This document shows positions 1-22,644 of a DNA stretch of 23,092 nt, piece after piece. Both the position numbers and the translations under genes were made by a program. Source of the DNA: Candidatus Thorarchaeota archaeon (GTDB lineage: Archaea; Asgardarchaeota; Thorarchaeia; Thorarchaeales; Thorarchaeaceae); the NCBI GenBank assembly GCA_048882485.1, contig JBHLRP010000039.1:1-23092 (forward strand), in the 5' to 3' direction. The notes below the pieces were generated by a model, which was not told the DNA's origin, did not search any database, and worked only from the letters and a program-made list of their open reading frames with translations. Position 1 is the stretch's first letter. Each line of letters opens with the position of its first letter.

Positions 1-1653
1 TGGCACATGGTCAGCCAGGCTCATCACTTCTCTATAATCTCGTTCTGCTTCGACAACTCTTTTCAATGCAGTGAAAATCCATCCCCTGGCTATTATTCTG
101 CAAGCATGGCCTCCCAGTGTATCGATTCTATTGTATTCATGGAACGTAAGGGCATCAGAAAGAGCGCCTCTGTACATTAAGTCAGTGGATGTTTGAGTCA
201 GTTTTGCGAGCGCCTCACTCTCAGATGCCAGTGAACGAACAGCAACTGACAATCCAAGAAGAGCATGGTCAGATTGCTTCTCAAATGCACTTTCGAGTCG
301 GTTGGCTGCTTCTGTCGCCAATTCTGCGATTCTATGTTCCATTTCCTTGGAAATCAGGTCTTTGGCCAGATTGTGAAGCGCGAACGTGCCATCGCCGCGG
401 TCTCTAATGAAGCTAAGATGAATCAACCTAGTCCATTGGTCCGAGTCCATTTCTGGCGCAATGATATTCAGCACTCTTTTATCGAAGAACGGGAGAATTC
501 CAGCTCGATTCACCAATCCTTGGAGTTCTTGTACCTGGCTGAAGAGTCTTCTCCAAGTCTTTAGACGAACTTCTTCGAGAGTGTCTGCCCGTAGGTTCTC
601 AATTGAGTCAAGGGAGAGCATGCCTGAATCAGCGACATCGCAAATAGTACCAATGACAAACGGATTCCCTCCGCTCACGCTGACTATTCGTTCTTGAAGA
701 GCGGAATCAGTGATTCCTCTCAATTCCAAGAGTTCAATGCAGCTTTCTCGTTCTAGCTCTGTGAGTTCAGATTCTTCAATGGCAATCTTTGCCTTATCCG
801 CAACGGGTCTTCTACTGGCCATCACTCCTACGCTGTTGGACAATGATGACAAGAACACTCGCCAGAGTTCAGACTCAGCAATCTCCTTCCCACCATACCT
901 CCAATGCGTCTTTTCTGCGTTGACCCTTTCGAAATGGTCAAAGAGAAAGAGGATTGGTAGTCCAGAGTTCGTTCGTTCGTTTATGTCTTCAAGCAACGCA
1001 TCTAGGTAGAGGAATTCAGCATGATGAGGATCCTTCCAAAGTATCTCAAGAAGTTTCTCAACATGATAATCTCCTAGTGTGTCTTGGAGCCATTTTCCGA
1101 CCGCTCCATACCTTTCTTTCAGCTTTGGAGCAACTTTTGCACTCACAGAACGGATTGCTATCCCGATGCTGACAAGAGAGCCTACGAATGGAATCGCAGA
1201 AATGACATCCTCTGCCCACTCCCGCCCGGATTCCTTGACTGGTTCGACTCCTTGTACAAACCGCTGTCTGATTTGCCAAAGAACATCAAATCTTTGCAGA
1301 GGAATTCCGAGCAACACTGCTCCCTTAGCCAAGACGTTCAATCGATCATAGAACTCGGTGTACTGCTGACAGTCAAGTACAATGGTGGACTCCACCGTCT
1401 TCTTCCAGTGTTCGAGAAGTGAACTTTTTCCAATCCCTCCAATACCACGAAGGTGTAATACAACACTCTTCTGCTTGCAGCGCCTAAGCGCCTCAGTCAT
1501 CCAGTCGATATACTCCTCTCTATCCACGAAGATCTTCTCAGAGGGTTCGAAGTGCTTGTACACTCTAGGATGCCCCGATTGAGCGATGAGGTACGTTCGA
1601 CCGGGTACCACATAAGCTAGCCGGTTCTTTATCCAAGGATAGCGAACTACCAT
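1..1653 (-). CDS. STAND-class P-loop NTPase (AAA_16/NB-ARC-like) with winged-helix region and probable start of helical/TPR repeats; 3'-truncated by the window edge
   Basis: Hand translation of the reverse strand gives an open frame from ATG at 1653 to base 1 (551 codons, no stop). Motifs: IFVDREE (FVGRE-like), Walker A GIGGIGKS (nt 1446-1423), Walker B ILFLFDHFE (~954-928), sensor-1-like VMASRR, GxP motif SGGNPF (~672-660), WHD FALHNL (MHD-like, ~384-367). The true start may be somewhat downstream of 1653. Confidence 0.88.
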   Translation of the reverse strand, partial: MVVRYPWIKNRLAYVVPGRTYLIAQSGHPRVYKHFEPSEKIFVDREEYIDWMTEALRRCKQKSVVLHLRGIGGIGKSSLLEHWKKTVESTIVLDCQQYTEFYDRLNVLAKGAVLLGIPLQRFDVLWQIRQRFVQGVEPVKESGREWAEDVISAIPFVGSLVSIGIAIRSVSAKVAPKLKERYGAVGKWLQDTLGDYHVEKLLEILWKDPHHAEFLYLDALLEDINERTNSGLPILFLFDHFERVNAEKTHWRYGGKEIAESELWRVFLSSLSNSVGVMASRRPVADKAKIAIEESELTELERESCIELLELRGITDSALQERIVSVSGGNPFVIGTICDVADSGMLSLDSIENLRADTLEEVRLKTWRRLFSQVQELQGLVNRAGILPFFDKRVLNIIAPEMDSDQWTRLIHLSFIRDRGDGTFALHNLAKDLISKEMEHRIAELATEAANRLESAFEKQSDHALLGLSVAVRSLASESEALAKLTQTSTDLMYRGALSDALTFHEYNRIDTLGGHACRIIARGWIFTALKRVVEAERDYREVMSLADHVP

Positions 1654-8108: not shown

Positions 8109-9470
8109 ATGACTATGACAATAGATATTCTATTAAAAGATGGAACTGTCTTCACTCCGAGTGGTGTACTGAGATGCAATTTGGCTATATCTGAAGACAA
8201 GATTGTTTCACTCGTAAGTGATAGTCACTCTCCAAAAGCAGAGAGAGTCCTTGACTGTTCAGGAAAATGGGTACTCCCTGGTGTCATAGATGCGCATGTG
8301 CATTTTCGAGACCCCGGCTACACTCACAAAGAAGACTATGAAACCGGAAGTAGAGCAGCTGCTGCAGGCGGAGTCACAATGGTGATGGACCAACCAAACA
8401 CCAATCCAGTTCCTAATACGCTTGAGAGATTTGAAGCGCACAAAGAAAATGCAAACAAGAAAAGCTTCGTGGATTTCAATCACTTCGCGAGTCCAGGAAT
8501 ATTAGACGAAGTTCCCAAAATCGCATCGTTTGGTGCGATTGCATTCAAGATTTTCCAGAAGAAAGCGGCATATCCATATGATACTGAAGCCTCCATTGCT
8601 GATGATTATCATATCTTTGAAGCTTTCAAAGCAACTGGAAAGGCAAATCGGCTATGTAGCGTTCATGCACATGAAACTTTCATCTATGAGGGAATGATGA
8701 AGCGACTTAGAGACACGGGAGAGATGACATGGCAAAATTTCATCGATGCATCTTATAACGAACTCGTCCGTGTTGGAACCGTTCCTACGCTAATATATCT
8801 AGCAGAGAAATCTGGCGCAAGATATTATGCCCTACACTGTGGCCTGAGAGACTATGTTGATGTGATAAGAGGGGCAAAAGCAGCAGGCAAGAATATTATC
8901 GCAGATTGTGTCATATCGCATCTAGTTCCTTCGCCAAAGCCAGAGAATCCAGGTATCCTAAAGGGGCAATATAAGACAAACGAAATCCATGTCAAAGCTA
9001 CTTGGCAAGGGATTTTGGATGGAACTATAGACTTCATTGATAGTGATCATGCTCCTCATCTGCCCGAGGAGATTGAGATAGGAGTAGAAGAGCCGGAGAA
9101 GATGGCACTCGGATATGGATGCATCGAGTATTACTTCTCACTTCTACTTAATGAGGTAAATAGAGGCAGAATATCAGTCGAGCAGCTAGTGAATCTGTGC
9201 TCCACTAATGTTGCGAAAGCATTTGATATCTATCCACGGAAAGGCGCACTGCAAGTAGGGTCTGACGCAGATATAGTGATAGTAGACCCAAAAAAGACTA
9301 TGACCATTTCTTCTGAGAATCTCTATACCAAATCGGGATGGACCGCATATGAGGGATATGAAGTCACAGGTGTTCCCATCTTCACTATTGTCAGGGGAAA
9401 TATTGTGATGGAAGATGGTAATGTCATTGGGAAGCCTGGATTTGGAGAATTCATAAGGCCAATCTGTTAG
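8109..9470 (+). CDS. Cyclic amidohydrolase (dihydroorotase/allantoinase/hydantoinase family), divergent
   Basis: PGVIDAHVHFRDPG, AAAAGGVT, PNTNP, FKIF (carboxylated-Lys position), VHAHE, ALH, SDHAPH, RKGALQVGSDADIVIVD. SD GAGGT upstream. Confidence 0.9.
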   Translation: MTMTIDILLKDGTVFTPSGVLRCNLAISEDKIVSLVSDSHSPKAERVLDCSGKWVLPGVIDAHVHFRDPGYTHKEDYETGSRAAAAGGVTMVMDQPNTNPVPNTLERFEAHKENANKKSFVDFNHFASPGILDEVPKIASFGAIAFKIFQKKAAYPYDTEASIADDYHIFEAFKATGKANRLCSVHAHETFIYEGMMKRLRDTGEMTWQNFIDASYNELVRVGTVPTLIYLAEKSGARYYALHCGLRDYVDVIRGAKAAGKNIIADCVISHLVPSPKPENPGILKGQYKTNEIHVKATWQGILDGTIDFIDSDHAPHLPEEIEIGVEEPEKMALGYGCIEYYFSLLLNEVNRGRISVEQLVNLCSTNVAKAFDIYPRKGALQVGSDADIVIVDPKKTMTISSENLYTKSGWTAYEGYEVTGVPIFTIVRGNIVMEDGNVIGKPGFGEFIRPIC

Positions 9471-10933: not shown

Positions 10934-12118
10934 TTAGTCTATGATTTGCAGTTCTGTCTTCCACCTTACGAATACAAGAACCACCAAAGCAATCATAGCA
11001 ATACCCCCTGCTATTACAAGTGGGTCTATGGGCATTGGCGGGCCCCTTTTCTCCCAAGTATCTGTATTAGTGTCATAAGCCCACAGGTCGTTTATGATGT
11101 AGTAGGACTCCGTATCGTTGTACCATCCGCCACTATACAAAACTGTGCGGTCGGATTCGGTATCGTAGGCCATATACGCTCTAGCCCGGGCTTGAGGATG
11201 ATTATTGGGACTCATCTCTGTCCATGCGTTGGTTCCATAGTCAAAAATCCATGTTTCTGCCTCAAGTTCCCCCTCGAACCAATCCATAGCTCCTCCAAAG
11301 AATACACACACCTCTGATTCCACATCATAAACCATCACTCCAATCGAAACTGGATGTTCAGCTGGTTTCATCTCAGTCCAGCTGTTGTTGTCATAGTCGT
11401 AAACCCAAGTGTCAGTGTATGTCTGTATCGGCCACTCGTCATAGCCGCCTCCTCCGAATAGAACAACACGATCGTATTTGCTATCATACGACATTGCTGC
11501 TACTCGACTTGAGGGGTGGATTGGAGGATTCATTCTAGTCCAGCTATCAGCATCACAGTCATAGACCCATGTTTCGTTACTGAACTCCCCTCCATCCATC
11601 AGGCCTCCGAATAGCACCATGACATCTGATTGGCTATCATAGACCATAGGGGCTGCTATTCTCGGAGGCGGCTGTTGTGATGGTGATTGTTGTATCCAAG
11701 TATTACTGTCATAATGATAGGCCCATGTTTCCTGCCAACTCTCAAGAGTTTCCCCTTCTCCACATTTATGGCCACTGAACAAAATGGTCACGTCTGAATC
11801 CGCATCATACGCCAGGGCACTAGCACTTCTTTTGCTGGGTGCTGATGACGGACTCATATTGACCCAGCTGTTGGTATTGAATGAATATGCCCAAGTGTCG
11901 CCATATGCGGGATCTGAGAACCTCTCCTTCCAGCCACCAAACATGATGATGCGGTCTGATCCTGAATCATACGCGAGTTGTGCACTATTCCTGTCGAGCG
12001 GGAATTCATCAAGAGTCTGTGCTTTTGCTGGAATGGCTGTCAGAATCGGCATTGTGCCGCCCAGGACGAGGACGAAAAAACAGCTCACCACGAAGAATGA
12101 ACGAACCGTGTTTTTCAT
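10934..12118 (-). CDS. Kelch-like six-bladed beta-propeller surface protein with signal peptide and C-terminal TM anchor
   Basis: Six repeats of YDxxSDxx(I/V)(L/F)FGG...(D/E)TWxYDxxxNxW. Hydrophobic N-terminus ending AKA, and C-terminal TM (LVIAGGIAMIALVVLVFV) followed by RWK. Confidence 0.87.
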   Translation of the reverse strand: MKNTVRSFFVVSCFFVLVLGGTMPILTAIPAKAQTLDEFPLDRNSAQLAYDSGSDRIIMFGGWKERFSDPAYGDTWAYSFNTNSWVNMSPSSAPSKRSASALAYDADSDVTILFSGHKCGEGETLESWQETWAYHYDSNTWIQQSPSQQPPPRIAAPMVYDSQSDVMVLFGGLMDGGEFSNETWVYDCDADSWTRMNPPIHPSSRVAAMSYDSKYDRVVLFGGGGYDEWPIQTYTDTWVYDYDNNSWTEMKPAEHPVSIGVMVYDVESEVCVFFGGAMDWFEGELEAETWIFDYGTNAWTEMSPNNHPQARARAYMAYDTESDRTVLYSGGWYNDTESYYIINDLWAYDTNTDTWEKRGPPMPIDPLVIAGGIAMIALVVLVFVRWKTELQIID

Positions 12119-14111: not shown

Positions 14112-15116
14112 TTGCCTAGTTCCAATTGCAGAAGTATATACATGTCAAGGTCAGAGGGAAACATAGTACAAATCCTAGGGCCCGTGAAAGCATTGGACTC
14201 GATTGACCGAAGTATCCTCTGGCAGCTAGATGCAAATTGCAGAATAACTTACGAGAACCTCTCTCGCAAATTAGGGATAACTGCAAATGCTGTCAGGAAA
14301 CGAATAACCAACCTGATTGACAGCGGAGTCATTATCCGGTTCATGGTGTTGCCCAGCAATGCATTGATGGACCTCGAGTTTGCTTCTGGAGTCCTGTACA
14401 CAAACGGTAGAGAAGACCGTCAGGAAACTGTTGATATCTTGGGGTCGCATCCTGCAATTCACCATGTCAGCCCGTTGGTTACTACTCGGGGCGGTGCATA
14501 CCACTTCTTTGGTCAATACTCTGGAGCTGAGATGCTGGCACAGCTTGGTTCCTTCCTTCGTGGACTTCCTCAGACTGAAGAAGTGAAGTTCAATACAGTT
14601 CTCTTTCCTCGGGGAGAGAGGGTGAAATTGACAAAGCGACAGATGCGTGTCTTACGTGTCCTAATGGATGATCCACGCATGCAGATCAGTGAGGTCGCTA
14701 GGAAGTCTCAACTTCCTGTTCGAGCGGCGCGAAGAGCATTGAAGGAACTTGAAGAAGAAGGCGGAGTTAGGTTCACAGTCAGGTGGGATGTTAACACCAG
14801 AGGGAATAATTCCTTCTGGGCGGTTATCGAATGGGACGACAAAGCCTCTGAACATTCCCAGATAATTGACTGGCTTAACAAAGAGTTTCCAAACGAATAT
14901 TGGACCTTTTTCGTTGCTGCAGCGGAACCGCTGGTCTGTGCGAGGTTCGTCGTTGACGACCTACTAGATGTCGACCGAATCACAAATCAAATCAAAGGCG
15001 CTCCATCTGTCAAATCCCTCGAAACTCTAGTTTGCTACTCCACGTTTGATTTCCCATGGTACGGAGAGGCAAAACTAAGGGAGATGCTAGCCCAGGAAGG
15101 AATTCAAGACTCCTAG
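14112..15116 (+). CDS. Lrp/AsnC-family regulator with two tandem wHTH + RAM-like units
   Basis: First HTH LDSIDRSILWQLDANCRITYENLSRKLGITANAVRKRI; second LTKRQMRVLRVLMDDPRMQISEVARK. Likely start is GTG 14184, by alignment with the paralog at 18939. Confidence 0.87.
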   Translation: MPSSNCRSIYMSRSEGNIVQILGPVKALDSIDRSILWQLDANCRITYENLSRKLGITANAVRKRITNLIDSGVIIRFMVLPSNALMDLEFASGVLYTNGREDRQETVDILGSHPAIHHVSPLVTTRGGAYHFFGQYSGAEMLAQLGSFLRGLPQTEEVKFNTVLFPRGERVKLTKRQMRVLRVLMDDPRMQISEVARKSQLPVRAARRALKELEEEGGVRFTVRWDVNTRGNNSFWAVIEWDDKASEHSQIIDWLNKEFPNEYWTFFVAAAEPLVCARFVVDDLLDVDRITNQIKGAPSVKSLETLVCYSTFDFPWYGEAKLREMLAQEGIQDS

Positions 15117-18071: not shown

Positions 18072-18863
18072 ATGGTTGAATCAATCGAGGTTTTGGAAGC
18101 CACTCCTGAGGACGCTGAAATCCTTGCAGAGATTTCGAAGAGAGCCTTTGAGAGTGACATTGATGTAGGTGCCTCAGTGAAAGGAGGTCCACTGGGGTAT
18201 GACTCAGTGGAAGTCCATATGAAAGACGCGAAGAGAGAGTGGTTAGATTACATGAAAGTCCTCTATAAGGGACAGATTGTAGGAGGGATGCGCGTGTACA
18301 GGATGCATCACGGCCATTATGAGATAATGGGTGTCTTTGTAGACCCTGATTATCATAGAAAAGGAATTGGCCAGAAATCTTTCGAGATTGTAATGCAAAT
18401 GTATCCAGATGCAAAGAAATGGACTCTTGATACACCAGACTGGAATTTTCGAACCAAGAACTTCTACGAGAAGCTCGGCTTCGTTCAGTACGGAGTCATG
18501 CGATGGGAGCCAGATTTTGAGCTTCGAGCGTATGAGCTGCTACTGGACCCAGATTTCAAGAGAGATGTCACAGGCATAGGTGAACTTGTTGATGGCATGA
18601 AACAAGTCACAGTTGAAGGGTCAGTGGATGACATTCCACCTGCACGCGAAGTAGTTTCAAGAAAGGATGGAAAGACTCACAGGGTTGCTGATGCAAGACT
18701 ATCCGATGAAACGGGGTCCGTTAAGTTGGCTCTTTGGAATGATGCCATTCGGCAGGTAAATCCAGGGGAGAGAATACTTGTTGAAAAAGGATATGTGAAT
18801 TCGTTCAGAGAGGAGATTCAACTCAATTTGAGTAGATTTGGAAGACTTATCATCCTGCAATGA
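18072..18863 (+). CDS. GNAT acetyltransferase fused to a C-terminal SSB/RPA-type OB fold
   Basis: Residues ~1-158 carry GNAT motif A VDPDYHRKGIGQ and NFYEKLGF. Residues ~165-263 (IGELVDGMKQVTVEG...LSDETGSVKLALWND...GYVNSFREEIQLNL) resemble crenarchaeal single-OB SSB. Confidence 0.88.
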   Translation: MVESIEVLEATPEDAEILAEISKRAFESDIDVGASVKGGPLGYDSVEVHMKDAKREWLDYMKVLYKGQIVGGMRVYRMHHGHYEIMGVFVDPDYHRKGIGQKSFEIVMQMYPDAKKWTLDTPDWNFRTKNFYEKLGFVQYGVMRWEPDFELRAYELLLDPDFKRDVTGIGELVDGMKQVTVEGSVDDIPPAREVVSRKDGKTHRVADARLSDETGSVKLALWNDAIRQVNPGERILVEKGYVNSFREEIQLNLSRFGRLIILQ

Positions 18864-18938: not shown

Positions 18939-19856
18939 GTGAGATCCTTGGACAATATTGACAAGAGAATCATATTCGCGCTAGACCAAGACTGCCGGCT
19001 ATCATACCAGGCAATAGCAGACAAGATTGGCCTTACAGCAAATGCCGCAAAGAAGAGAATCGCAAAGCTTGTCGAATCAGGCATAATCGACCGATTTCTT
19101 ATCACACCATCCTTCGCTATGATGAATGCAGACCTTGTTCTAGCTATTGTCCAAAGTGATGGCACAGAATACCAGGAGGACCTCATTGAAACCATGGGAA
19201 GCAATCCATCCGTCGCACAAGTGAGTTCAGTTGCTTGTGGCATGGGGGGTCTCTATGCAGTATTTGCTGCAGTGAGTGGTTCAAGGGCCCTCTTGGAGTT
19301 TGGTTCTCAGATAAGGAAGCTTGAGTCTGTTACTGATGTCGACATTCATGTCTTGCTCTACCCAAAGGGTAAGAAGGTTAAACTTTCTAAGACGCAAAAG
19401 ACTGTGCTTCGGTATCTTGTGGAAAATACTCGTGCTACTATCGCGGATGTTGCAAAAGCAACAGGGATGACAGCACGAAGAGCACGAAGAGCAATTGACG
19501 ACCTCAACGAGGGAGAAGGAGTCGCATTCAGTGTTCTTTGGAATCTCGGTATCGGCGGATTGACTGAGGTTCTTATGAGGATTGCCTGGGATGAGAAGAG
19601 TACCACTGCCAATGAGATTGTGGAATGGCTTCAAGAGAAATTTCCTGATGAGTTTTGGTCTCCATTCATTTCTGCTGTAGCTCCAATCATCTTTGCCAGA
19701 TTTGTGGTCAGTGAGATTGAAACCGCGGAAGCAATATCAAGAACTATTAGAAGAGCGCCATTTGTTGACTTGGTAACTTCCTTGGTTCTATACTCCAACA
19801 AAATCTTCGAGTGGCCCGGGACTATTGAATTGAAGAAACTGTTAGACAGCCAATAG
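18939..19856 (+). CDS. Lrp/AsnC-family regulator with two tandem wHTH + RAM-like units
   Basis: LDNIDKRIIFALDQDCRLSYQAIADKIGLTANAAKKRI; second HTH LSKTQKTVLRYLVENTRATIADVAK. Clear paralog of 14112..15116. GTG start. Confidence 0.88.
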   Translation: MRSLDNIDKRIIFALDQDCRLSYQAIADKIGLTANAAKKRIAKLVESGIIDRFLITPSFAMMNADLVLAIVQSDGTEYQEDLIETMGSNPSVAQVSSVACGMGGLYAVFAAVSGSRALLEFGSQIRKLESVTDVDIHVLLYPKGKKVKLSKTQKTVLRYLVENTRATIADVAKATGMTARRARRAIDDLNEGEGVAFSVLWNLGIGGLTEVLMRIAWDEKSTTANEIVEWLQEKFPDEFWSPFISAVAPIIFARFVVSEIETAEAISRTIRRAPFVDLVTSLVLYSNKIFEWPGTIELKKLLDSQ

Positions 19857-19965
19857 CCTCGAGAAGCTTCGCTCATCTCAATTGGCTCTTCAAGCGTTGA
19901 ATTCTTATGAGATGAATCTGCATTCTGTCAAATAGAATAACGATTAGGTCAGTGAGATAGGGATA

Positions 19966-22644
19966 TTGACAGGTCAACCTTGCGACGAGCTGGCGCGAGC
20001 AGAAGAACTACTGAAGAATGGGGAATATAATCAGGCCCTTCAGATAGTACAATCCCTTTCATCCAATGAACTGATGCCTGCTGAAAGCCTCCATTGCTCG
20101 CTTCTTGAGTGCAAACTACGCATCAGGTTGGGTGATCTTGAGAAGGCCGGGCATGTTGCTGATGAGTCTTTAGAAGTTGCCAGGCAGCAGGAGAATACGC
20201 TCATGATGCTTGACTTTCTTCTCATTAAGGTTGAGCTTGCATGGCGTTCAGGAGAATTTGATGAAGGCCTTTTGATGGTCCCAGAGATTGAGAACCAACT
20301 GAAACAAAGCGATGTAAAATCAGATATTGATGAATCGGAACTAAAGAGAAGAAAGGCGCAGCTTTCACGTCATTGTGGAATCCTCAATTGGTATAAGGGA
20401 GACCTAGACAGAGCAGGCGAGTATCACGAAAAGAGCCTCGAGGTATATCGTGAATTGGGCGATAAGCCAGGCGAAGCTAGCTCTTTGAATAATATTGGAT
20501 TGGTGCAGTGGTCCAAGGGGAATCTCAATGCTGCAGCTGAGTATTATGAAAAGAGCCTATCAATCAGACAAGAATTAGGGGTCCCCTATGAAATCGCGGT
20601 TATTCTGAACAATCTCGGAAATGTCTATGTAATGAAAGGTGACTTAGAAAGTGCATTAGAATACCATAATCAAGCCCTACACATTAGGGAGAAGCTGGAT
20701 AATAAGCCTGATTTGGCAACCTCATTGACAAACGTGGGATCCGTTTACCAGACAAGGGGGAGTTTGAACCAGGCGTTGGAATGTTATCATAGGGCATTGA
20801 AAATCTATGAGGATATTGATGTTAAACAGGGCATGGCATTAATTCTAAGCAACTTGGGCAGTGCATATGAAATCCGAGGAGATCTTCTTCAGTCACTTGA
20901 TTATCAGCAAAGAAGCCTAGAGATTAGAAAAGAACTTGGAAACAGGCAAGAGATAGCTCTTTCGCTTCTCAACATCGGTGGAATTCATCGCCAGAGGGGT
21001 GATTCGGAATTAGCTCTGGAAACTTTACAACAGAGCCTGGAATTGTTCAAAGAATCAGGTAATGAGTCCTATACAGCTGCTGCAAATTATTTCATCATAG
21101 CAGTAGCAACTGAGAATGATGACCTTGAAGCTGCTGACGATGCTCTTCGCAATCTTCAGGAACTCAGTGAGGAGACCACCAACCCAGTCATCAGCCAGCG
21201 GTATAGAGTGGCCAAAGCAATCCGACTGAAGGCAAGCAAAGGCGCTCGAGACAAACTTGAAGCTCAAGGAATACTTGCTGAAATTGTTCAAGAAGAAGTG
21301 GTTCAGCACACGCTCACTGTGACTGCAATGGTCCATCTTTGTGATTTGCTTCTGTTTGAGCTCAAAATGACAGGTGACGAAGAGCTCTTCGAGAGTGCGA
21401 AAGATATAGCACAGCAGATCATGAACATCGCCAAATCTCAGATGTCCTACTCTCTCCTTGCTGAGGCTTATATTCTTCAATCAAAATTCGCATTAGTGGA
21501 GCAAGACATCGAAAAAGCTAGGATTTTGCTTTCACAAGCACATATCATGACTCAAGAGAAAGACCTCTACATCCTTGCTAGAAAAGTAGCTCACGAAAGG
21601 GATCTGCTGCAATTGGAGGTAGACAAGTGGCAGAAGATAATCGAAAAGAATCCATCTCGAAAGGAAATGATTGACTTTGCCCAACTTGATGACTATCTCG
21701 AGCGCATGATCAAGAAGACGGTGGCAGTCCTTACAGCCGATGAGAAGAAGGAGTTCGGTGATGAAGCAGTCAAGGAGAAGTACCGCCTAGCATATTCCGA
21801 CCTACTCGAGGGAGCAGAAGCTGTCGAAAAGAGTCAGTTTCGAGTGGGCATTGCTCAGATTGGACTCTCCCAGAATGGAGACCTTCTCGGTGAGTATTAT
21901 GAGGAATTTGGCAAAGGTCTCTTGGTAATTCAAAAAGATAGGATTGACGAGGTGAAGGCCAGAGTTGAGAAAGCGATCAATGAAGCCAATGATGCGGGGG
22001 TCAATGTCCTACTCTTCCCGGAGATGACAATAGACCTGAATTATCCAGAATTGATTGATGAGGTAACTAAACTGGCGAAGAAGCATCGGATGTACATCAT
22101 CCCGGGGTCGTTTCATGAGGAGGAATCCAAGCAGAACCTATGCAGAGTCATCGGACCCACCGGAGTCATTTGGGAGCAAGCCAAACATATACCCGCTATC
22201 ATCCATCTCAAAGGAAAGAGATTCACTGAGGGTATCGATGTTGGGCAGCACCCAAGAGAGACCATAGTCTGCAACACAGAATATGGAAGAATGGCTATTG
22301 TCATCTGTCGTGATTTCCTAGACATGGATTTGCGTGTTGAACTGAAGAACTTCGACCCGCCAATCGATTTGGTGCTTAATCCAGCATTTACGCCGGTCAC
22401 GGCTGATTTCGATGCAGCTCATTTTGATGCCAGAAGGTCAATCTATGCATACTGCTTCTTCGCCAATGTAGCTGAGTTCGGCGACTCACTCATATACACT
22501 CCTGAGAAAGAAAAGATTGAGAGGAAGCTGACAGCTGGAGAGGAGGGCCTTATCTACAAAGATGTGGATTTGTTCCAGCTTAGGTCAGAAAGGAAGAAAT
22601 GGGAAAAAGAGCGCAGACGGTTTATCCAAAGCACCAAGTCATAG
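19966..22644 (+). CDS. TPR-repeat protein fused to a C-terminal carbon-nitrogen hydrolase (nitrilase superfamily) domain
   Basis: About six 40-aa TPR units (SLNNIGxVxxxKGxLxxAxEYxxKSLxIxxELG) and a helical linker, then FRVGIAQ, LLFPE686, QAK740H, VIC781RDF, LVLNPA, FFANVA and GDSLIY. TTG start. Confidence 0.9.
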   Translation: MTGQPCDELARAEELLKNGEYNQALQIVQSLSSNELMPAESLHCSLLECKLRIRLGDLEKAGHVADESLEVARQQENTLMMLDFLLIKVELAWRSGEFDEGLLMVPEIENQLKQSDVKSDIDESELKRRKAQLSRHCGILNWYKGDLDRAGEYHEKSLEVYRELGDKPGEASSLNNIGLVQWSKGNLNAAAEYYEKSLSIRQELGVPYEIAVILNNLGNVYVMKGDLESALEYHNQALHIREKLDNKPDLATSLTNVGSVYQTRGSLNQALECYHRALKIYEDIDVKQGMALILSNLGSAYEIRGDLLQSLDYQQRSLEIRKELGNRQEIALSLLNIGGIHRQRGDSELALETLQQSLELFKESGNESYTAAANYFIIAVATENDDLEAADDALRNLQELSEETTNPVISQRYRVAKAIRLKASKGARDKLEAQGILAEIVQEEVVQHTLTVTAMVHLCDLLLFELKMTGDEELFESAKDIAQQIMNIAKSQMSYSLLAEAYILQSKFALVEQDIEKARILLSQAHIMTQEKDLYILARKVAHERDLLQLEVDKWQKIIEKNPSRKEMIDFAQLDDYLERMIKKTVAVLTADEKKEFGDEAVKEKYRLAYSDLLEGAEAVEKSQFRVGIAQIGLSQNGDLLGEYYEEFGKGLLVIQKDRIDEVKARVEKAINEANDAGVNVLLFPEMTIDLNYPELIDEVTKLAKKHRMYIIPGSFHEEESKQNLCRVIGPTGVIWEQAKHIPAIIHLKGKRFTEGIDVGQHPRETIVCNTEYGRMAIVICRDFLDMDLRVELKNFDPPIDLVLNPAFTPVTADFDAAHFDARRSIYAYCFFANVAEFGDSLIYTPEKEKIERKLTAGEEGLIYKDVDLFQLRSERKKWEKERRRFIQSTKS

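Follow-up and report, generated by a model that had tools for sequence, protein, structure and literature searches.

A gene at positions 19966–22644(+) of contig JBHLRP010000039.1 from Candidatus Thorarchaeota archaeon (assembly GCA_048882485.1) encodes, in a single frame of 892 codons, a protein in which an N-terminal array of tetratricopeptide repeats (TPR) is followed by a C-terminal module of the nitrilase superfamily. We refer to this protein as the TPR-nitrilase and to the whole stretch of 23,092 nucleotides that was analysed as the window. The architecture of the protein, its intact active site, the boundary of the nitrilase module, the swapping of heads on the scaffold and the kinship of the module were all observed. 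We propose that the TPR-nitrilase may be a single-chain sensor-effector with assembly-dependent nitrilase activity, a reading whose chances of being right or wrong we regard as evenly balanced.

Architecture of the TPR-nitrilase

The reading frame opens with a TTG codon, the earliest possible start downstream of an in-frame TAG at 19945, and the orthologs in two genomes of the same genus (G170 and G179) are syntenic and have an identical frame. The protein has a three-part layout (Table 1), with a TPR solenoid (residues 5–560), a connector helix (residues 561–601) and the nitrilase module (residues 602–892). In the full-length AlphaFold model, which has a predicted local distance difference test score (pLDDT) of 80.5, 27 helices make up the solenoid 5–560 and the nitrilase fold covers residues 606–882. 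Forty-one full-length TPR-nitrilase proteins from independent assemblies could be aligned end to end. A preliminary description of this DNA had proposed a TPR array joined in frame to a hydrolase of about 270 residues with the catalytic triad E686-K740-C781. The fusion is confirmed by the single open reading frame, by Pfam and by the AlphaFold models, and the three residues of the triad were found where they had been placed, within the motifs FPE, AKH and ICRD; the hydrolase is indeed a module of the nitrilase superfamily, and its size has to be corrected to about 290 residues, from residue ~602 to the C-terminus.

The scaffold matched the Pfam family TPR_12 with 157 bits, and also TPR_1, TPR_10 and TPR_MalT, over residues ~130–400, and the pLDDT of residues 126–384 lay mostly between 85 and 97. 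The top Foldseek matches of the TPR part were the TPR domains of LGN/Pins (E 2e-12). TPRs of this type bind extended peptides in their groove, and the scaffold of the TPR-nitrilase probably binds a protein or peptide cue. On the N-terminal side of the canonical repeats, residues 1–125 form helical repeats in the AlphaFold model; on their C-terminal side, the motif H457-L-C-D-L-L and E465 correspond to invariant or near-invariant columns in the alignment of the 41 proteins. The connector helix was modelled with low confidence between residues 565 and 601 (pLDDT 36–47), and its ratio of non-synonymous to synonymous substitution rates (dN/dS) is 0.026.

The same scaffold carries different heads

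When residues 385–600 were used as the query, 55 proteins were recovered, all belonging to this scaffold family; most of them were TPR-nitrilases, and the rest ended in a kinase or TIR domain or were headless. Two proteins, P0275 and P0280, are collinear with residues 1–608 at 48–49% identity and continue with a full Ser/Thr kinase domain (Pkinase, 170 bits); their scaffold is as close to that of the TPR-nitrilase as the scaffolds of many TPR-nitrilase homologues are. P0309 and P0313 could be aligned up to residue 584 at 30–33% identity and then carry a TIR_2 domain, and three further proteins (P0291, P0292 and P0306) end just past the connector helix. Since kinase-bearing and headless relatives stay collinear with the TPR-nitrilase up to residue 585–608 (BLAST alignments of P0275, P0280, P0291, P0292 and P0306), the junction lies at residue ~600 and the connector is part of the scaffold. 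One repeat scaffold thus accepts exchangeable heads, nitrilase, kinase, TIR or none, joined at residue ~585–608. The preliminary description had left the choice between a sensor-effector and a substrate-recruiting enzyme. The swapping of heads at one and the same joint lends direct support to the sensor-effector idea, and this is the end of the proposal that we favour, although the data only lean that way. With the same query (residues 385–600), no second copy of the scaffold was found in the genome that holds the TPR-nitrilase.

Two contigs that carry relatives of the scaffold deserve mention. On the contig of P0309 (JGI 3300042731), two TPR-TIR genes (792 and 796 aa) are followed by a RelA_SpoT/TPR-S gene (669 aa); close to them lie a NUDIX gene and a gene for an Apyc1-like metallo-beta-lactamase, and the cluster looks like a small effector island. 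On contig L022, a gene for a small GTPase of the Arf/Ras/Roc type (8119–9030(+)) lies 300 bp downstream of the headless relative P0292 (607 aa).

Kinship of the nitrilase module

The five classical CN-hydrolases of this genome scored 115–216 bits against the Pfam model PF00795, compared with 30–37 bits for the three members of the module family, among which the present module had 30 bits. With a profile built on the family, the relation was the reverse: members reached 343–525 bits, the nearest outsiders 40–105 bits and the classical CN-hydrolases of the genome 7–30 bits. Against the PADLOC collection, the TPR-nitrilase matched the models for CARF-nitrilase (46 bits), RT_UG5-nitrilase (43 bits) and RTasNitrilase (36 bits), to be compared with 26.7 bits for the Pfam CN_hydrolase model. 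The CARF-nitrilase model (PDLC01989), which is the top defence model, was matched by residues 661–856 and only in its nitrilase part (model positions 215–398). We also scanned ten of the nearest outsiders; all of them matched PADLOC models for nitrilases associated with a reverse transcriptase (RT) or for UG5, Drt1a or CARF nitrilases, mostly far above the general model of Pfam. These ten outsiders, too, are fusions, such as HEAT repeats with a nitrilase, tandem double nitrilases, a nitrilase with an aldolase and a nitrilase with a winged helix. The family profile matched DRT1 (PDB 9yfd) over its whole nitrilase domain (1004–1223, E 1.1e-5); the match to Nit2 was slightly better but confined to the N-terminal half.

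In a maximum-likelihood tree, the family formed one clade with an approximate likelihood-ratio support (SH-aLRT) of 99, and the five classical enzymes were placed apart (98). The preliminary description had considered that the domain might nest within a housekeeping branch. Such a placement was rejected on the profile scores, on the clade of the family, which is separate from the five classical CN-hydrolases that the genome already has, and on the finding of the module in only 94/301 genomes (see below). Taken together, these results suggest, as far as sequence comparison goes, that the module belongs with the divergent group of nitrilases that supplies the effectors of RT-nitrilase systems and the CARF-nitrilases.

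Fold, active site and predicted dimer

Modelled alone, the module had a pLDDT of 92.5 and a predicted template modelling score of 0.91, and Foldseek aligned it with mouse Nit2 (2w1v; E 5.7e-16, template modelling scores 0.67/0.71). A fold comparison with VIA gave a best Z of 25.7 (root mean square deviation 3.9, 239 residues aligned). All nitrilase branches fell between Z 18 and 26, and the next unrelated fold had a Z <8, so that the module shows the four-layer alpha-beta-beta-alpha fold of the superfamily. Since Nit2, NitFhit, formamidase, amidase, carbamoylase and nitrilase were tied at Z 22–26, the similarity of the modelled fold assigns no nitrilase branch. The weakest nitrilase-fold match was the Nta1 structure 5b62 (Z 18.4), and Nta1 gave no sequence match to the family profile at E up to 1. 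DRT1, which is present in the sequence library, did not turn up in the fold libraries searched.

Besides the triad, E755 is a candidate for the second glutamate of a Glu-Lys-Glu-Cys tetrad, and it pairs with the Glu of Nit2 'QES' in the profile alignment. Exceptions to the tetrad are few among the 187 family modules (Table 1); in one member, P0152, D/G replace the Glu and Cys positions. The conservation of the tetrad and a dN/dS of 0.08 argue that the module is probably catalytically competent.

A homodimer model of the module reached an interaction prediction score from aligned errors (ipSAE) of 0.48 (best control, 0.00), with at least 86% of the contacts agreeing between runs and a partner pLDDT of at least 88. 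Of the proteins whose structure was solved as a pair of one chain, 20/30 reached this mark, as did 1/23 of those solved as single chains. The predicted interface is the canonical nitrilase dimer surface, and conservation in the family (187 modules) peaks at its helices 785–795 and 813–825. The tail of the module is also conserved: FIQST[RK] terminates 176/181 complete modules and lies 0–2 residues from the C-terminus in 170/181. In the monomer and dimer models the tail has a pLDDT <50 and lies outside the confident dimer contacts. By analogy with DRT1 (see below), the FIQST[RK] tail and the connector helix, both of low confidence in the models, are candidates for a lid or plug.

Distribution and partners of the module

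When residues 600–892 were used as the query, 818 proteins of 490–1561 aa were recovered at E up to 1e-3, and the best 120 of these 818 were 61–95% identical across the whole module. A search of 1.84 billion cluster representatives gave 51 clusters with E <1e-30; full-length matches ended at ~230 bits, fragments filled the range beneath and the best non-family proteins appeared at ~70 bits. The family is found nearly exclusively in Asgard archaea, with source names that include Thor-, Loki/Prometh-, Hermod-, Hod- and Kariarchaeota. Among the 301 Asgard genomes searched, the 94 that hold the module fall into four families, with one weak match in a fifth. The number of matches per genome ranged from one to at least eight, and some of them form tandem arrays, such as four successive genes in G192:C1. 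A description of this family was looked for in full-text searches combining nitrilase with Asgard, with DRT1 and with TPR, effector or conflict systems, and none was found.

The partners of the module are diverse, and its identity to copies on unrelated partners is still 60–69%. Besides the present TPR scaffold (~850–900 aa), it is carried by a ~1275-aa solenoid, of which this genome has two copies (L005 and L006). These are 76% identical to each other; their module is 65–66% identical to that of the TPR-nitrilase and has the same FIQSTR end, and only residues 600–892 align. In P0087 the module stands between an AAA_16 domain and an alpha/beta hydrolase, and in P0032 and P0123 its partners are a zinc finger and a kinase-like domain. 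Finally, it is C-terminal in beta-helix/NosD repeat proteins of 926–1800 aa (P0146, P0148 and P0150). The two complete ones, P0148 and P0150, start with a hydrophobic signal or anchor; P0146, which is partial and lacks its N-terminus, contains PKD and TSP3 besides the beta-helix/NosD repeats. The layout of a signal or anchor, a beta-helix and the C-terminal module resembles that of polymorphic toxins.

A bacterial member was also noticed. P0159, from the myxobacterium Sandaracinus amylolyticus (WP_053232411.1), has a module of a GC-rich subclade joined to an alpha/beta hydrolase. By its sequences, this bacterial subclade would imply a transfer between myxobacteria and Asgard archaea, in either direction.

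Evolution of the gene

Identity to the close orthologs is 0.62 over the N-terminal 125 residues and climbs along the protein to reach 0.87 for the nitrilase; in distant homologues it is 0.34–0.43 for the scaffold and 0.65 for the nitrilase. As synonymous substitutions (dS) were saturated against G179, the comparison with G170 alone is informative. Against the G170 ortholog, the non-synonymous rate (dN) was 0.153 in the cap versus 0.026 in the nitrilase, with a dN/dS of 0.25 versus 0.08. Because dN/dS is 0.25 in the N-terminal cap and 0.03–0.09 elsewhere, the gene is under purifying selection with its front end evolving fastest. Positive selection was considered and rejected, pairwise dN/dS being at or below 0.25 throughout the gene.

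A separate observation concerns dS itself. Against the G170 ortholog (L019), dS was 0.34 in the nitrilase module (21769–22641) and 1.05 in the TPR repeats, so that the module has a third of the value of the repeats. The difference may be due to a codon constraint, or else to copies of the module having recombined or undergone gene conversion.

Proposed mechanism and alternatives

In our proposal, the TPR-nitrilase would be a cytoplasmic single chain built from two exchangeable parts, a scaffold (residues 1–601) and a head (residues 602–892). The scaffold would form a TPR superhelix that binds peptides in the manner of LGN/Pins, with a fast-evolving cap and a conserved connector. The head would work only once assembled, as expected from other nitrilases, and would dimerise via its two most conserved helices. 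A cue bound by the scaffold would alter the assembly of the head or expose it, and the head would then cleave a C-N bond in a cellular target. This target would be a side chain of a protein or else an essential metabolite that bears an amide, such as NAD+ or a nucleotide, and the outcome would be growth arrest or a signal. Control of the assembly or exposure of the head by a ligand is proposed by analogy with DRT1 and UG5-large. That the scaffold senses a ligand and that assembly activates the head is what we infer here, together with the type of substrate and the role in the cell. A conflict-type role is suggested by the kinship of the module, by TIR as an alternative head, by the polymorphic-toxin-like and AAA_16 carriers and by the patchy distribution of the family, with multiple and tandem copies.

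A number of points weigh against this proposal. The tree showed a three-way split between the family and two outsider clades and picked out no sister group; its outsiders had been chosen by similarity to the query, and it covers none of the 13 classical reference branches. The pass of the dimer model may stem from likeness to, or memory of, solved nitrilase dimers. In profile scans, no NTPase model of the NACHT, NB-ARC or AAA_16 type matched the TPR-nitrilase. The whole gene is under purifying selection, without the hypervariability typical of pathogen sensors. The locus is syntenic in the nearest orthologs, which share the upstream genes (amidase, membrane protein, GNAT-OB and double-HTH regulator). 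It does not resemble a defence island: the neighbours are metabolic or regulatory genes, and none of the 10 neighbour proteins scanned, nine of which lie from ~12 kb upstream to the contig end, had a PADLOC match beyond a generic similarity to HTH domains. A foreign insertion was rejected, the GC content of the gene being equal to that of its surroundings. With a kinase as the other head, plain signalling is as good a fit as conflict, and for every family member a sensor-effector role rests on sequence and models.

Several of these points are accommodated by a client-recruiting, protein-modifying enzyme of ordinary regulation. The TPR array would then bind a client, of which the head would deamidate or deacylate a side chain or the N-terminus, just as the kinase siblings would phosphorylate theirs, and the protein would be part of an expanded Asgard signalling network and not of a conflict system. 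The kinase head on a scaffold with 48–49% identity, the peptide-binding habit of LGN/Pins-type TPRs, the stable locus of ordinary GC with no defence neighbours and the purifying selection along the entire protein all fit this explanation; furthermore, nitrilase-fold protein amidases exist, and the module does align with Nta1 (5b62, Z 18.4). However, Nta1 is the weakest of the nitrilase-fold matches, and the nearest relatives of the module are effector nitrilases of defence systems. The same scaffold also carries TIR heads, in one case within the tandem TIR/TIR/RelA_SpoT cluster, the same module is found on signal-peptide beta-helix and AAA_16 proteins, and its distribution is patchy, with multiple copies and tandem arrays. 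We consider a protein-modifying enzyme of this kind unlikely on balance, while taking it seriously.

A metabolic amidase or nitrilase, in which the TPR would merely serve assembly, stability or localisation, appears improbable to us. The intact active site and the nitrilase fold are in keeping with such an enzyme, and the window also holds an amidase of the amidase signature family and an amidohydrolase, both separate from the TPR-nitrilase. But the genome already has its five classical CN-hydrolases, from whose branches the module is far by profile score; a kinase or TIR domain replaces the module on the same scaffold, and the more distant homologues lack a conserved metabolic operon.

An artefact, with two genes run together through a misassembly or a sequencing frameshift, or with a gene in decay, could have been hinted at by the low CN_hydrolase score (26.7 bits over residues 665–874 for a cut-off of 23.2, a marginal pass that reflects divergence) and found no other support; it is refuted, and has next to no chance of being right, given the 41 collinear full-length homologues from independent assemblies, the same frame in the G170 and G179 orthologs, dN/dS values of 0.03–0.25 and the intact catalytic residues. 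The suspicion of a singleton or a misassembly, raised in the preliminary description, is ruled out likewise by these collinear homologues and by the syntenic orthologs in two genomes of the genus.

Comparison with known systems

In DRT1, the nitrilase is an abortive-infection effector whose catalytic Cys is required; as a monomer it has no activity, and conserved residues at its C-terminus form a lid over a neighbouring active site (PMC13275509). As the substrate, the authors of that study suggest an essential molecule that bears an amine or amide (PMC13275509). Abortive-infection defence by UG5-large likewise depends on the Cys of its nitrilase (PMC13436386). The TPR-nitrilase resembles DRT1 (UG1) and UG5-large/DRT11 (class 3 UG/Abi RT-nitrilases) in having a large regulatory or sensing part followed by a C-terminal nitrilase of the same divergent group, with intact catalytic residues and a short conserved tail after the last helix, and by analogy a dependence on oligomerisation would be expected. 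It differs from them in that it has neither a reverse transcriptase nor an alpha-repeat/DUF4136 connector nor protein-primed DNA; its partner is a TPR scaffold, its host is an Asgard archaeon, the identity is only ~25–30%, and it is known from sequence alone.

The CARF-nitrilase fusions, which are ancillary effectors of type III CRISPR signalling, likewise join a ligand-sensing domain to a nitrilase head, but their sensor is a CARF domain that binds cyclic oligoadenylate, whereas here the putative sensor is a TPR array outside any CRISPR context. With the STAND/NLR-like receptors that have TPR sensors (Avs, MalT-like and AAA_16-TPR proteins), the TPR-nitrilase shares a TPR array and an exchangeable enzymatic head, TIR being among the alternatives. 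Some carriers of the module have an AAA_16 domain (for example P0087), and an AAA_16-TPR gene stands immediately upstream of one ortholog; the TPR-nitrilase itself has no NTPase domain. Its repeats come first and its head last in the chain, an order that is reversed in most Avs proteins. The ~1275-aa solenoid-nitrilase has the same module on an unrelated scaffold, in contrast with the canonical 600-residue TPR_12 array of the TPR-nitrilase. Classical nitrilases (Nit2/omega-amidase, aliphatic amidase, formamidase and beta-ureidopropionase) share the fold (Z 22–26), the Glu-Lys-Glu-Cys site and the predicted dimer surface, but they are stand-alone enzymes of ~270 aa, to which the present module adds an N-terminal strand and hairpin and the invariant tail.

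What appears to be new is that Asgard archaea have an effector nitrilase of the DRT1/UG5/CARF type on a TPR scaffold, with no reverse transcriptase involved. That bacterial anti-phage systems (DRT1 and UG5) require nitrilase domains as effectors was shown only recently, and the TPR-nitrilases would present a module of this kind in a much simpler setting: one polypeptide, no reverse transcriptase and no DNA adduct. Natural controls come with them, since the scaffold also occurs with a kinase or TIR head or headless, and the head also occurs on unrelated scaffolds. This simple setting and these controls open two questions to direct tests, namely which substrate effector nitrilases cleave and by what means they are kept inactive. 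The family is largely confined to Asgard archaea, where experimental knowledge of immunity and regulated cell death is almost nil, and the TPR, TIR, kinase and small-GTPase modules of these archaea bear on the origin of eukaryotic signalling.

A bolder version of the sensor-effector proposal, speculative and rather doubtful in our own estimate, is that Asgard archaea and at least one myxobacterium own a combinatorial, NTPase-free receptor system. Swappable scaffolds (TPR_12 array, giant solenoid, beta-helix and AAA_16) would carry swappable heads for cell death or signalling (DRT1-like nitrilase, TIR, kinase and perhaps RelA/SpoT), and the nitrilase would be a new immune effector, switched on by scaffold-driven assembly and destroying an essential amide-bearing metabolite, for example by deamidation of NAD+. 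If true, the archaea closest to eukaryotes would possess an innate-immunity or cell-suicide toolkit.

Feature coordinates and neighbouring genes

Table 1. Positions, in the window, of the parts of the TPR-nitrilase gene and of the regulator gene upstream of it.
Feature	Position	Strand	Remark
Whole gene	19966..22644	+	892 codons and TAG stop; TTG start, kept in orthologs G170 and G179
N-terminal helical cap, residues 1–125	19966..20340	+	Fastest-evolving part of the protein
Canonical TPR_12-type repeats, residues 126–384	20341..21117	+	Pfam, AlphaFold, Foldseek
Scaffold-specific helical repeats, residues 385–560	21118..21645	+	Near-invariant motif H457-L-C-D-L-L and E465
Connector helix, residues 561–601	21646..21768	+	Scaffold part; kept in scaffold-only and kinase-bearing relatives
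Plug-in nitrilase module, residues 602–892	21769..22641	+	Extra N-terminal strand and hairpin, alpha-beta-beta-alpha core, conserved tail
Catalytic Glu E686 (FPE)	22021..22023	+	E in 186/187 family modules
Catalytic Lys K740 (AKH)	22183..22185	+	K in 186/187 family modules
Candidate second Glu E755 of E-K-E-C tetrad	22228..22230	+	E in 186/187 family modules; putative role
Catalytic Cys C781 (ICRD)	22306..22308	+	C in 184/187 family modules
Predicted symmetric dimer interface, helices 785–795 and 813–825	22318..22440	+	Homodimer model, conservation map
C-terminal tail FIQSTK-S (family consensus FIQSTR)	22621..22641	+	Conserved across the family
Double winged-helix (AsnC-type HTH x2) regulator	18939..19856	+	Pfam; 110 bp upstream; context only, not shown to act on the gene

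No conserved operon partner was found for the gene: the upstream synteny is confined to the nearest orthologs, and more distant TPR-nitrilases, even within the genus, have other neighbours. The double-HTH regulator in particular is syntenic in the nearest orthologs only and is absent beside the more distant TPR-nitrilases. The window contains no cas genes or CRISPR context, and no reverse transcriptase domain was found in the protein or its neighbours.

The window holds two regulators of this kind, 14112–15116(+) and 18939–19856(+), which are paralogous (36–38% identical), have two AsnC-type winged-helix domains each and are kept in the nearest relatives. Between them, 18072–18863(+) encodes a protein of 263 aa (307–309 aa in relatives) in which a GNAT acetyltransferase is joined to an Ssb-like OB fold; the GNAT-OB pairing is unusual and is kept upstream of the TPR-nitrilase in close orthologs. 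On the contig of the ortholog P0007, the double-HTH regulator is separated from the TPR-nitrilase by a 1096-aa AAA_16/TPR gene, and the slot upstream of the TPR-nitrilase may be a site where genes of the AAA_16/TPR type accumulate. At the other end of the window, ~18 kb from the TPR-nitrilase, a partial open reading frame of 551 aa (1–1653(-)) runs off the edge; it has a weak AAA_16 match and may be another STAND-like protein. Finally, the product of 10934–12118(-) is a Kelch beta-propeller protein that starts with a signal-like segment and has a hydrophobic anchor at its C-terminus, and Kelch/beta-propeller genes recur close to TPR-nitrilases in relatives.

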